A stretch of 64,000 nt of DNA from Longimicrobiales bacterium (GTDB lineage Bacteria; Gemmatimonadota; Gemmatimonadetes; Longimicrobiales; Gaopeijiaceae), in the NCBI GenBank assembly GCA_965202805.1, contig OZ241869.1:3680001-3744000 (forward strand), in the 5' to 3' direction. Of the stretch, positions 48,340 through 57,109 are shown one piece after another. Under the pieces are notes generated by a model. The model made no database searches. It was given only the letters and a program-made list of their open reading frames with translations, and was not told the DNA's origin. The position numbers and the translations under genes were made by a program. Within the stretch, counting starts at the first letter, position 1. Each line of letters opens with the position of its first letter.

Positions 48340-50691
48340 ATGCCGACGGTCGAGGAACTGAGCGGCGAGGTCCGTGCGCTGCGGAAGCGGCTCACGAGGC
48401 TGAGCGAGGCGAGCCTGCGGATCAGTGAGAGCCTGGACGTGGACACGGTCCTGCGCGAGGTGGCGGACAACACGCGGGCGCTCACCGGCGCGGGTGGCGC
48501 CTTCATCACGACGGTGGATGATTCGGGCGGGCTGCGGGATCTCGTCTCATCGGGTACCGAAGAACACGCCCGGTTTCGGGAACACCCCTGCGGTCCCGGG
48601 CTTTGGGAGCACCTGCGCGAAATGTCTGGTCCGCTCCGGCTGAGGGACCTGGCGGCCTACCTTTGTTCGCTTGGCTTCCCCGAGGACCCGACGCTGGCCC
48701 GGAGCTTCCTGGGGATGCCGATCCGGCACCGGGGCGAGCGTGTCGGCGGCTTCTACCTCGCCGACAAGGAGGGCCGCCGGGAGTTCACGCGCGAGGACGA
48801 GGAGGTGCTTGCGCTCTTCGCCTCGCAGGCCGGAGCCGCGATCGCCAATGCGCGCGCCTACCAGGACGTCGAGCGGGCGCGCTCCGACCTTGAAGCACTG
48901 ATCGATACGGCGCCGGTGGGCGTTGTGGTGTTCGATGCCCCAAGCGGGGCGCTGGTGTCTCTGAACGCCGAGTCGCGGCGAATCGTGCGTGCCCTGTGCC
49001 TGCCGGACCAGTCGCCCGAGGATCTGCTGAGGGTGTTGCGCGTGCGGCGCGCGGACGGGCGGCAGTTGGCGCTGGACCGCCTTCCCCTGAAGGAGCTGCT
49101 GCGCGCGTCGAGGACGGTGCGGGTCGAGGAGATCGTGCTCGAGACGCCCGACGGGCGGAGCATCACGACGCTGGTCAACGCGACGCCCATCCGTTCGGAG
49201 GCGGGGGAGGTCGAGTCGGTGGTGGTCACGATGCAGGACCTGACGCCGCTGGAGGAGCTTGAGGTGCTCCGGGCCGAGTTCCTGGGCATGGTCAGCCACG
49301 AACTCCAGGGCCCCCTGACCTCGATCAAGGGCTCGGCCGCCACCGTGCTGGGGGCGTCGTCGGCGCTCCGCCCCGCCGAGGCGCTTCAGTTCTTCCGGAT
49401 CATCGACGAGCAGGCCGATCACATGCGCGAGCTGATCGCCGACCTGCTGGATGCGGCGCACATCGAGGCGGGCAGACTGTCCGTCGCGCCCGAGCGCACC
49501 CGCCTCCCCGCCGTCGTGGAGCAGGCCCGGACCCTGTACCTGAGCGGCGGGGGCCGGAACCCTGTGCTGATCGATCTGCCGCCGGACCTGCCGCGTGTGC
49601 TCGCGGACCGGCAGCGCATCGTCCAGGTGCTGGGCAACCTGCTCTCGAACGCCGCCCGGCACTCGCCCCAGTCGTCGCCAGTCCGGGTGGTGGCGGCCCG
49701 CGAAGGGGTGCATGTGGCGGTGTCGGTGGTCGACGAGGGCCCGGGCATCCCGGCCGAGCGCCTGCCGCACCTGTTCCGCAAGTTCGCCCGCAGCGACCGG
49801 CGGGATCGCGCTCGCGGGGTCGGGGCCGGTCTGGGCCTGGCGATCTGCAAGGGCATCGTCGAGGCGCACGGGGGCCGCATCTGGGCCGAAAGCGCGGGAA
49901 CGGGTCCAGGCGCGCGCTTCACCTTCACGATCCCGGTCGCCGAGGAGGCCGTGACCGTCACCGCGGCCAGGCCGGCGCGGCGGGCGGGCGGCGGGCGCGC
50001 TGGTGCGGCCGGGGCACTCCGCGTCCTGGCGGTGGACGACGATCCGAAGGACCTGCTCTACGTGCGGGGCATCCTCGAGGACGCGGGCTACGACGCGATC
50101 GTTACGGGCGACCCGGAAGAGGTGGCTGGCCTTATCGACCGGCAACGGCCCGACCTCGTGCTGCTGGATTTGCTCCTGCCCGGGACCGACGGCATCGAGC
50201 TGATGCAGGGCCTGCCGGCGCTGGCCGACCGGCCGGTCATCTTCCTGTCCGCGTACGGGCGCGACGAGACGATCGCAAGGGCGCTCGAGACCGGGGCGGC
50301 GGACTACGTCGTCAAGCCGTTCTCGCCGACGGAGCTCGTGGCCCGAATGGAGGCTGCCCTGCGCAAGCGCGCCGGGCCCGCCGAGCCCTTCCGCGTGGGG
50401 CGGCTCGCCATCCACCACGAGGAGCGCCGGGCGAGCCTGGCCGGCGAGCCCCTTGCGTTGACGGCCACCGAATACGACCTGCTGAGCGCGCTCACGGCCA
50501 AGGCCGGCCGGGTGTCGACGTACGACTACCTGCTGCGCCGGGTGTGGCGCTCGCGGCGAGGAGGCAACACCCGCAGCATCCGCGTCTTCATCAAGAACCT
50601 GCGCGACAAGCTGGGCGACGACGCCAGGAACCCGACCTACATCTTCACCGAGCCCCGCGTCGGCTATCGCCTGGCCGGGCCCGGGAACTGA
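48340..50691 (+). CDS. Soluble hybrid regulator: GAF-PAS-HisKA-HATPase-REC-OmpR winged helix
   Basis: GAF FTREDEEVL; PAS TTLVNATPI; H-box SHELQGPL, N NLLSNA, G1 DEGPGI, G2 GLGLAI; REC VDDD/LLD/KPF; wHTH LTATEYDLL...LRDKLG...GYRL; no TM segment. Confidence 0.9.
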   Translation: MPTVEELSGEVRALRKRLTRLSEASLRISESLDVDTVLREVADNTRALTGAGGAFITTVDDSGGLRDLVSSGTEEHARFREHPCGPGLWEHLREMSGPLRLRDLAAYLCSLGFPEDPTLARSFLGMPIRHRGERVGGFYLADKEGRREFTREDEEVLALFASQAGAAIANARAYQDVERARSDLEALIDTAPVGVVVFDAPSGALVSLNAESRRIVRALCLPDQSPEDLLRVLRVRRADGRQLALDRLPLKELLRASRTVRVEEIVLETPDGRSITTLVNATPIRSEAGEVESVVVTMQDLTPLEELEVLRAEFLGMVSHELQGPLTSIKGSAATVLGASSALRPAEALQFFRIIDEQADHMRELIADLLDAAHIEAGRLSVAPERTRLPAVVEQARTLYLSGGGRNPVLIDLPPDLPRVLADRQRIVQVLGNLLSNAARHSPQSSPVRVVAAREGVHVAVSVVDEGPGIPAERLPHLFRKFARSDRRDRARGVGAGLGLAICKGIVEAHGGRIWAESAGTGPGARFTFTIPVAEEAVTVTAARPARRAGGGRAGAAGALRVLAVDDDPKDLLYVRGILEDAGYDAIVTGDPEEVAGLIDRQRPDLVLLDLLLPGTDGIELMQGLPALADRPVIFLSAYGRDETIARALETGAADYVVKPFSPTELVARMEAALRKRAGPAEPFRVGRLAIHHEERRASLAGEPLALTATEYDLLSALTAKAGRVSTYDYLLRRVWRSRRGGNTRSIRVFIKNLRDKLGDDARNPTYIFTEPRVGYRLAGPGN

Positions 50692-56900: not shown

Positions 56901-57109
56901 GTGGTCCAGTTCCTGTCCCGATGCCAATGGGTCCCGCCCGTTGCGTTGTAGAGGGCCATGAGCGCGGCCCGCTCGGCCGCATAGGGCTCCTGAGGGGGAG
57001 GCGGTGGGGGAGGAGCGGGTGGGGTGGTGGTGGCCGGATCGTCCGAGCAGACGGCCAGCAGGATCGCGCAGAAGGCCGTTGCCAGGACGCGTGATCTCGG
57101 ACGTGCCAT
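53930..57109 (-). CDS. LRR-array lipoprotein with zinc metalloprotease domain, copy B
   Basis: Lipobox LLAVC, poly-Pro linker, about 12 LRRs, second cap plus 3 LRRs, HEVGHNLSLRH, IMTYC; colinear with copy A. Confidence 0.87.
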   Translation of the reverse strand: MARPRSRVLATAFCAILLAVCSDDPATTTPPAPPPPPPPQEPYAAERAALMALYNATGGTHWHRDRNWTTVGSIRDWQGVSTNSAGFVTALTLKDNNLSGTLPPELGNLTHLRQLDLEENQLTGSIPPELGDLPELRRLVLGDNELTGPIPPGLGSLSRLTMLDLGDNGLTGTIPSELGSLPRLDSLLLHRNELTGPIPAELGNLATLGRLLLALNQLTGPVPPALGNLANLTYMSLSRNQLTGTIPVELAKLSSIRILSVSRNNLTGTIPPELGNLTTLEGLYLYQNQLTGGIPVALGNLSELETLWIHDNGLSGPLIEELGNLAGLEDLRAADNDLSGKLPRNLGRPRGLARLELEGNQDLAGLLPRSMIGLDFLQVLSYGATDLCAQVDEEFQEWLRTIPEGSRTDCDVAHVERLALTDLHEVTGGASWANRSAWGTDAPLADWHGVSTEDGHVAGLALSANGLSGPLPPEIANLTELRVVDLAGNDLSGAFPGSFAGLHELAEVRVGRNPGLAGALPFALRGLERVRVLLHDDTGLCASPAPDFQAWYGAIEQTAGAVCDNPDQVTVSLPMVYLTQSVQAPSRSVRLVANRDALLRAFVTAGEPRGFFEPEVVAAFTGRDGDEVHRVVMTREANQIPAQADEGDLELSYNAVIPAEIVVPGVELAVEVDPEGTLPLSDESETRFPEEGSDSLSVVAVPPMQLTLVPVLDAAEPDSSVVEWVRGISGDSPEVGLLRHAFPFAEFSVSPHEAWHTSLDLTTSAGQVSLFGELEALRESEGGTGYYYGVAAGLGSIAGRGQLPGWVSIGITRSTTLAHEVGHNLSLRHAPCGDPSGVDPSFPYEDGSIGVWGYDFRNGSTVPPDRGKDIMTYCRTLPWLSDYYFEKVIDHRAQLAADTASARLAAANLPADMLVLWGGMVDGELWIDPAFPMRAAARLPGARGPYRIRGTTSDGGTVFSLDFTPSDDGHGGRHFFFTVPIEADWEEALERITLTGPEGEAYVDQADERRMTVVTEPGTGRLRAILRDWEGALPDALRDEADLEVSMTRGLKEAVRLRR

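Follow-up and report, generated by a model that had tools for sequence, protein, structure and literature searches.

We analysed a stretch of 64,000 nucleotides (nt) from a Longimicrobiales bacterium (Gemmatimonadota; Gaopeijiaceae; GenBank assembly GCA_965202805.1, contig OZ241869.1, positions 3,680,001 to 3,744,000 of the forward strand), hereafter the window, which contains two adjacent genes, A and B, each predicted to encode a lipoprotein that joins leucine-rich repeats (LRR) of the plant-receptor type to an M66-like metzincin protease. The original prediction, made from the letters of the DNA, had described two colinear genes of about 1050 amino acids (aa), and co-oriented open reading frames (ORFs) of 1045 and 1059 aa were found on the minus strand at exactly the limits that it gave. 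The features of the pair, in window coordinates, are as follows.

Gene B (P0001), 50664..53801, minus strand: 1045 aa, paralogue in the variable downstream slot
Gene A (P0002), 53930..57109, minus strand: 1059 aa, predicted LRR and M66-like metzincin lipoprotein, the stable copy adjoining murQ
Gene A, 57047..57109, minus strand: signal peptide and lipobox-like LLAV-C21 (Val at -1), then a Pro-rich tether; from sequence and homologue conservation
Gene A, 56057..56848, minus strand: first LRR array, 11 plant-type 24-aa repeats (residues 88-351), preceded by an N-cap at 56849-56980
Gene A, 56102..56416, minus strand: repeats 7-11 with the conserved concave patch S260, S262, R263, Y284, Y286, W308, H310; from homologue conservation and omega (the dN/dS ratio)
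Gene A, 55415..55873, minus strand: second capped LRR mini-array with invariant Cys541/Cys563
Gene A, 55007..55405, minus strand: Ig-like beta-sandwich opening the protease module; from structure model and fold search
Gene A, 54392..55006, minus strand: metzincin catalytic domain, H819-E820-H823-H829 at 54623-54655, Met-turn M871
Gene A, 53933..54379, minus strand: C-terminal beta domain without a family name (no Pfam match)
Gene B, 52836..53555, minus strand: first LRR array, 10 repeats, conserved patch at 52881-53195
Gene B, 51177..51785, minus strand: metzincin catalytic domain, zinc motif at 51399-51431
Gene B, 51321..51770, minus strand: recombination tract in the catalytic domain, common to the related locus L023 at 99.6% identity

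The two proteins are identical at 728 of 1052 aligned residues (69%) and share one domain order, namely a signal peptide with Cys21, an N-cap, the plant-type LRRs with a Cys-capped end, the second capped mini-array, the Ig-like domain, the metzincin and the C-terminal beta domain; the first array of B is one repeat shorter than that of A (10 and 11 repeats, respectively). All of the parts foreseen in the original prediction (capped 24-aa LRRs, a second mini-array, a beta-rich segment, the HEVGHNLSLxH motif, a Met-turn and a C-terminal domain) are present in both genes, as is every motif pair that it quoted, and the scaffold that it called near-identical is so at the LRR consensus positions (93 of 100 identical) but not in the other segments (73-79%). 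In the full-length structure model (predicted template modelling score 0.56), the protease part is at low confidence. Contigs of four other public DNA runs match long stretches of A and B with 0-13 differences, and because two contigs from other runs bridge the gap between A and B, the pair is no assembly artefact; none of the contigs listed spans the junction of gene B with the neighbouring kinase gene. No exact DNA match between the two genes is longer than 43 nt, indicating that the duplication is old, and recent gene conversion between the two is ruled out by the same measure.

The catalytic apparatus appears complete. H819, E820, H823, H829, C832, M871 and C874 are present in each of 109 full-length homologues (122 proteins minus two self-duplicates and 11 outside 1000-1100 aa), and HExxH is kept in 146 of 149 distant representatives. 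The zinc motif, HEVGHNLSLxH, has Ser in the usual Gly place of HExxHxxGxxH (Ser 91% by weight), the Met-turn M871 lies in DIMTYC downstream of the third His, and omega of the catalytic domain among the gene-A orthologues is 0.09. A structure model of the 490-residue module (predicted local distance difference test, 94.7) matches the metzincin alpha/beta catalytic fold (reprolysins, ADAMs, archaemetzincin), and its top match is StcE (3UJZ) both in Foldseek (E 1.1e-13, template modelling score 0.41, 13% identity) and in VIA-align (Z 14.2, root-mean-square deviation (rmsd) 7.3, 340 residues, 16% identity). Pfam Peptidase_M66 (PF10462) scores 22.6 and 24.7 bits on the two proteins, with a gathering score of 20.6, and covers about a fifth of the profile (roughly 55-60 of 306 positions); several paralogues in the genome fall under this cut-off. 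Some relatives are labelled 'M66 family metalloprotease' by NCBI, and the ESM Atlas neighbours of the module are unnamed clusters, some of which carry PF10462. Thus, the StcE/M66-like metzincin of the original prediction, which had suggested a structural comparison with StcE, is recovered by a Pfam score above gathering and by both fold searches. The fold match to StcE/TagA (M66, PF10462, 3UJZ) extends over the Ig-like domain, the catalytic domain and part of the C-terminal region, and the zinc motif HEVGHN is shared; where StcE has its INS and C/X409 modules, A and B have the LRR arm and a predicted lipid anchor instead. By its motifs and predicted fold, the module is expected to work like an StcE-type modular metzincin. 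The variable stretch at residues 793-815 forms in the model a strand and loops directly ahead of the active-site helix, which in metzincins make up the substrate-binding rim.

The spacing of the LRRs is exactly 24 residues, the repeats carry LxGxIP and are preceded by an N-cap, as in the plant-specific LRR class, and the best sequence and fold matches of this part among solved structures are plant LRR receptor kinases, in agreement with the consensus type originally assigned. The ectodomains of these kinases (GSO1, ERL1/2, FLS2, MIK2, PEPR1, HAESA) share with A and B the 24-aa LxxLxLxxNxLxGxIP repeats and the N-cap; A and B differ in that their two capped arrays hold just 10-11 and about 4 repeats, that they lack a membrane helix and a kinase, and that the repeats are fused to a protease in a bacterium. 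None of the NCBIfam models reaches its cut-off on A or B, and Xop effector and internalin matches in that database were dismissed as LRR cross-matches. Two patterns stand out on the concave face. On repeats 7-11 the motifs SxSR, YxY and WxH are near-invariant, with the patch residues S260, S262, R263, Y284, Y286, W308 and H310 kept in 102-109 of the 109 full-length homologues per position. The faces themselves form discrete classes, each of them almost fixed, SLHR/RLAL (A), SxWx/RSAW (B1) and TLSN/RLGF (B2). A shared patch alongside class-fixed faces is the mark of one common ligand feature with separate tuning in each class, and not that of an arms race.

The original prediction had placed the differences between A and B at the concave face and just before the zinc motif, and had regarded the family as diversifying. 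The second location stood: the rim is identical at 9 of 23 positions and the rest of the catalytic domain at 134 of 172 (p 0.0002), a comparison that takes in the buried core and so favours an excess. The first did not hold for the concave face as a whole, with 20 of 40 concave x-positions identical (50%) as against 48 of 90 other exposed x-positions (53%; Fisher p 0.85), and entropy over the 109 proteins showed no concave excess either (1.51 vs 1.64 bits, p 0.61). The array was split into repeats 1-6 and 7-11 after this entropy result, so that the p-values below are post hoc. Among 12 gene-A orthologues, likelihood omega was 0.28 at concave positions of repeats 1-6 (other exposed, 0.25), 0.03 at those of repeats 7-11 (other exposed, 0.27), 0.16 over the whole concave face (other exposed, 0.26) and 0.14 at the rim; in 31 genes of the wider clade it was 0.53 vs 0.35 (p 4e-5) for repeats 1-6, 0.26 vs 0.43 for repeats 7-11 and 0.44 at the rim vs 0.19 for the catalytic domain, tree-based ratios that are subject to distortion by recombination. 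Parsimony counts gave the same ordering at higher values, reaching about 0.8-1.0 in the 31-gene set at the concave positions of repeats 1-6. By likelihood every site class lies significantly below 1 in both sets. Five single sites exceed 1 among the gene-A orthologues, of which K94 alone is concave, and marginal; none of the concave sites does so in the 31-gene set. Hence, the per-site dN/dS analysis that had been proposed as a check found no class on the binding face above 1. The concave residues of repeats 5-11 are almost unchanged across the 12 orthologues, whose DNA is 87-93% identical to the window copy.

What these comparisons do reveal is a difference between classes. In repeats 3-6 the between-class minus within-class difference is 0.49 at concave and 0.28 at other exposed positions (p 0.014), and the same concave positions are under purifying selection in gene A (omega 0.12), suggesting that the paralogues likely bind different things. 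The six B1-type genes, the most variable group, differ at 0.40 of concave positions of repeats 3-6 and 0.23 of other exposed ones, so that weak diversification may operate in slot B. The notion of a diversifying family therefore survives as an excess of change between paralogues at concave repeats 1-6 and the rim, not as ongoing diversifying selection, and arms-race selection as stated was rejected after tests by entropy, parsimony counts and likelihood. The stronger conservation of the concave face relative to other exposed positions among orthologues fits fixed, class-specific specificities combined with recombination better than an arms race with phages or competitors.

Recombination is most evident in the catalytic segment. 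The tract that gene B shares with L023 spans 447 nt with at most 2 mismatches and covers most of the catalytic domain, where about 96 nt would be expected at 89% identity and 0 of 300 permutations gave as much; the larger flanking regions are 86-90% identical. Through the LRR and middle regions, L023 agrees with a further locus, L025, at about 98% identity, but in the tract these two loci are 85.5% identical and L023 and the window 99.6%, indicating that the catalytic head moved without its arm. A chimeric assembly of the L023 contig may be an alternative source of the tract. Tracts exceeding all permutations were found in 9 of 36 B-group pairs and in 6 of 66 A-group pairs, none of the latter with the window gene A; for six neighbouring genes the figure was 3 of 51 comparisons, with a longest tract of 228 nt. 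By the approximately unbiased test, the tree of any one of five segments rejects those of the other four, but because this test favours the segment's own tree we relied on the tract analysis instead. In favour of exchange, rims of the SVNG type are combined with A-like, B1, C and D faces across the 109 proteins, and D faces come with SVNG (15) or xLGS (13) rims.

A genome-wide collection of paralogues, also called for by the original prediction, yielded a family of 12 full LRR-protease genes, A and B included. All 12 full modules carry LRRs, and 11 of the 12 genome ORFs with plant-type repeats carry the protease; the sole ORF without it is a Big_2 and plant-type LRR lipoprotein at G000:C1:611488-613524. 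Among the 10 paralogues that lie outside the window, 7 have Big_2 stalks in addition, and across the family the length of the N-terminal part ranges between about 100 and 1700 residues. In one paralogue (G000:C1:3509625-3513263) the protease module is preceded instead by repeats of the LRR_8/BspA-like class, without the plant-type motif, a hint that LRRs were grafted there independently. The C-terminal beta domain of the family is the only one carried by a 233-aa ORF (G000:C1:1090246-1090947) that starts with a signal-like segment and lies 2.8 kb from a full LRR-protease gene. In some representatives of the wider family (P0124, P0128) the protease module is matched in two stretches, suggesting proteins with two protease modules.

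Beyond this genome, the protease module matches 4633 clusters at 50% identity, and LRR motifs occur in 107 of the best 149 cluster representatives. The tandem pair is thus no special system but 2 of 12 copies in a family that comprises thousands of clusters. Across the phylum, a tally of 401 genomes, which takes in the unpublished genomes G096 and G057 (neither of which carries a claim alone) and in which kin genomes are not independent, shows the module in 192 and an LRR array in 69, with the LRR forms concentrated in two families. Module and LRR occur together in all 10 genomes of genus g1 and all 24 of genus g2, and family f7 has the module and the LRR in 17 and 18 of 30, respectively; family f4 has the module in 76 of 166 genomes and the LRR in 2, and family f5 in 36 of 94 and 3. 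LRR motifs were found in 0 of 16 examined module proteins of families f2, f4 and f5 (18 matches, ten genomes; Pfam on 15). In a tree of 158 modules, from which 9 with an unknown N-terminus had been dropped and whose sampling is biased toward the best matches of the query, the LRR forms nest among LRR-less forms, with 6 label changes as against at least 25 in shuffles; the node uniting 124 of 125 LRR forms has a support of 0.30. This nesting within a widespread LRR-less module suggests that LRR arms were added to an old protease module, which then expanded in a few lineages. The 71 closest loci are titled Gemmatimonadetes or Longimicrobiales metagenome-assembled genomes, with some Gammaproteobacteria, Acidobacteria and Deltaproteobacteria, and relatives include Candidatus Palauibacter; the bins of these relatives we take to be sponge-derived. 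Two papers place sponge-associated lineages in these groups (PMC10469786; PMC11651109), and the words 'peptidase', 'M66' and 'mucin' are absent from their main texts.

The anchoring of the proteins deserves separate comment. Bacterial lipoboxes follow the consensus [LVI][ASTVI][GAS]C, and the lipobox originally noted in each gene stands as regards the signal and the conserved Cys but departs from this consensus in having Val at -1 (LLAVC in A, LLTVC in B). The Cys is kept in 104 of the 109 homologues, the remaining 5 being gapped there, and deeper relatives show the standard LAAC or LAGC; lipidation of A and B at Cys21 is therefore likely on the evidence of sequence. Among 120 homologues the -1 residue is Val in 68, Gly in 19, Ala in 11 and another residue in 4, with no motif in 18. 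The retention of Val through the whole clade (A, 57047-57109; B, 53739-53801) is unusual for substrates of signal peptidase II by the above consensus and may reflect a relaxed specificity of that enzyme in the lineage.

The surroundings of the pair comprise three further features.

murQ-like SIS gene and anmK, 57125..59450, plus strand: divergent from gene A; Pfam SIS and AnmK matches, 'murQ' being our own reading
Inserted block (context only), 47128..50691: DUF4198 gene at 47128-48099, minus strand, and hybrid kinase gene at 48280-50691, plus strand
Gene B foreign tail, 50664..50741, minus strand: 25 codons that replace the last 8 residues of the family and overlap the end of the convergent kinase gene

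In 11 related loci, gene A and murQ-anmK are arranged head to head. A second copy, full or nearly so, follows gene A in 6 of the 11 (with two more in L003), and a fragment lies at the contig end in L005; none follows A in L001, L002 and L010, and L012 ends at that point. Slot B is occupied by either of two paralogue types. Gene A is thus a stable, conserved orthologue, and in the slot of gene B copies are gained, lost and recombined. Neither the other 10 genome paralogues nor more distant homologues were found to have murQ/anmK as neighbours. The DUF4198-kinase block lies between gene B and a phosphoesterase gene and was found in none of the 7 related loci with both of these genes; no repeat flanks it. 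The kinase has the domains GAF-PAS-HisKA-HATPase-REC-wHTH. The genome holds 5 copies of it, 2 of which adjoin or run into the 3' end of an LRR-protease gene (window 48280-50691; G000:C1:3029761-3032688), and a copy lies upstream of a homologue in L070. Look-alike contigs are 10-100 times deeper on the kinase gene than on its flanks in four metagenome runs, so this kinase family seems widespread in those communities. A protein of 1031 aa that combines PD40 propeller repeats with an Omp85-like C-terminus (window positions 60129-63224) is conserved next to anmK in the 11 related loci. No sigma-70-type promoter was found at the locus, and terminator-like sites are at chance level.

Collectively, these observations lead us to propose, with a rough probability of 0.5, that A and B are lipid-anchored surface zinc endopeptidases of the StcE-like kind whose LRR arm would hold a host-matrix protein or glycoprotein, and whose classes would be specialised and recombined. 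The protein, which has a signal and Cys21, would be exported, processed and lipid-anchored at the cell surface; the shared patch of repeats 7-11, with its Arg and aromatic residues, would recognise something that all substrates share, plausibly a peptide that is anionic or glycosylated; specificity would be tuned per class by repeats 3-6 and the rim of the cleft, where the class-fixed differences are seen; and the metzincin, with intact motifs and a predicted fold, would then cut. The product might serve as peptide food or the cut might clear a niche in sponge tissue, and secreted symbiont proteases have been proposed to feed on sponge proteins (bioRxiv 10.1101/527234).

Several points weigh against this proposal. 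In the VIA-align search StcE is followed by reprolysins, ADAMs and archaemetzincin at Z 10-11 (next best 10.9) with an rmsd of 2.5-3.2, and reprolysins and archaemetzincins are not glycoproteases. The lipobox departs from the standard, and in diderm bacteria a lipoprotein can also be oriented towards the periplasm. The sponge habitat of the genome is no more than likely, judged from its relatives. One active-site class occurs with several LRR classes, which a strict partnership of arm and head would not predict. StcE itself was not reached by sequence (phmmer at E 1, the best 60 of 87 profile matches, and 3 plasmid records matched by tblastn), identity to it is 13-16%, A and B have Ser for the zinc-motif Gly, and at the place of StcE Y457 (catalytic Glu+10), which is described together with W366 and H367 as lining the cleft (PMC11018308; PMC13003899), they have Ala830, invariant in 104 sequences. 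The M66 membership of A and B thus rests on a marginal Pfam score plus a predicted fold, and mucin cleavage cannot be assumed. Finally, the mucin-binding X409 module of StcE is reported to be dispensable for catalysis (PMC13003899), which means that a tethered binder need not select the substrate.

In a somewhat doubtful alternative, the LRRs would serve as an adhesin or spacer, anchoring either the cell or the enzyme to the host matrix, and the protease would cut nearby proteins for food without LRR-guided choice. The most conserved LRR surface is common to all classes, as expected of one anchor ligand, and the Big_2 stalks and variable N-terminal length, the existence of the module without LRRs in other families, the mixing of active-site classes across LRR classes and the precedent of X409 all agree with it; the class-fixed differences of repeats 3-6, held by purifying selection, do not. 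Such class-specific faces would also suit several fixed targets in host defence, each class clipping its own lectin, receptor or phagocytosis factor of the sponge and thereby sparing the symbiont from digestion. Defence targets often drive positive selection, none of which is seen at the LRR face or cleft, and we regard this explanation as improbable despite the confinement of LRR fusion and expansion to a few genera and the proposal that eukaryote-like repeat proteins of sponge symbionts act in recognition and evasion of digestion (PMC11706023).

A repertoire of hypervariable faces that tracks changing phage, competitor or host targets would account for the raised omega of the 31 genes at concave repeats 1-6 and rim, for the excess concave difference of the B1 genes and for the mosaic gene B, but it is quite improbable given that all class omegas are significantly below 1, that K94 is the only, marginal concave site above 1, and that concave repeats 5-11 scarcely change across the gene-A orthologues. 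Least probable by our estimate, and indeed very improbable, is an action in cis or on self, with the LRRs serving as an inhibitory pro-part or the protease trimming the cell's own envelope proteins in the periplasm in connection with murein-sugar recycling genes: the family-wide invariant patch could be an intramolecular contact, and gene A does face murQ/anmK in the 11 loci, but those genes are not found beside the other 10 paralogues or more distant homologues, LRR-less relatives keep the same module, and the N-terminal architecture varies freely.

The elements of the proposed surface protease have counterparts elsewhere. LRR proteins are enriched in sponge symbionts (PMC11706023; PMC6306507), and the eukaryote-like LRR proteins described there resemble A and B in their Pfam families (PF00560, PF12799, PF13855), in their expansion in certain genera and in a proposed host interaction; in the accessible portions of these papers the LRRs figure as a domain count, without mention of a fused protease, whereas here nearly every plant-type LRR gene ends in a metzincin. 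Mucinases commonly bear binding modules thought to target them, and in modular mucinases (M60-like BT4244, HC11) a binding module tethered to a zinc peptidase is sometimes needed for activity; these belong to another catalytic family, carry carbohydrate-binding modules rather than LRRs and have characterised substrates (PMC13003899). The accessible part of a CLCA1 preprint (10.1101/2025.10.18.683246) added nothing decisive. No description of an LRR-M66-like fusion was found in the literature searched, which included few subscription journals and left supplementary gene tables outside the search. The LRR-metzincin architecture is thus real and uncharacterised, and every part of it is a known kind of domain.

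The importance of the pair is limited by its being 2 of 12 copies of an architecture common in metagenomes. The role of the abundant eukaryote-like LRR proteins in sponge symbionts is an open question, and most of them lack a read-out; here the LRRs are joined to an enzyme with intact active-site motifs, so that both binding and cutting can be assayed. Residues for mutation can be named (S260, S262, R263, Y284, Y286, W308 and H310 in the patch, E820 in the active site), L023 and L025 provide natural arm/head recombinants, and the family may be a source of new glycoprotease reagents. A more ambitious version of the proposal, which we consider unlikely, is that sponge-symbiotic Gemmatimonadota joined LRRs of the plant-receptor type to an ancestral StcE-fold protease and now use a combinatorial kit of binder-guided proteases, in which the patch would read a sponge-specific glycan or sulphated peptide mark, the class repeats would choose the protein, and heads with different cleavage rules would be swapped between species. 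If true, nature would have its own equivalent of engineered binder-mucinase fusions, and symbionts would have a direct way to edit the sponge matrix.

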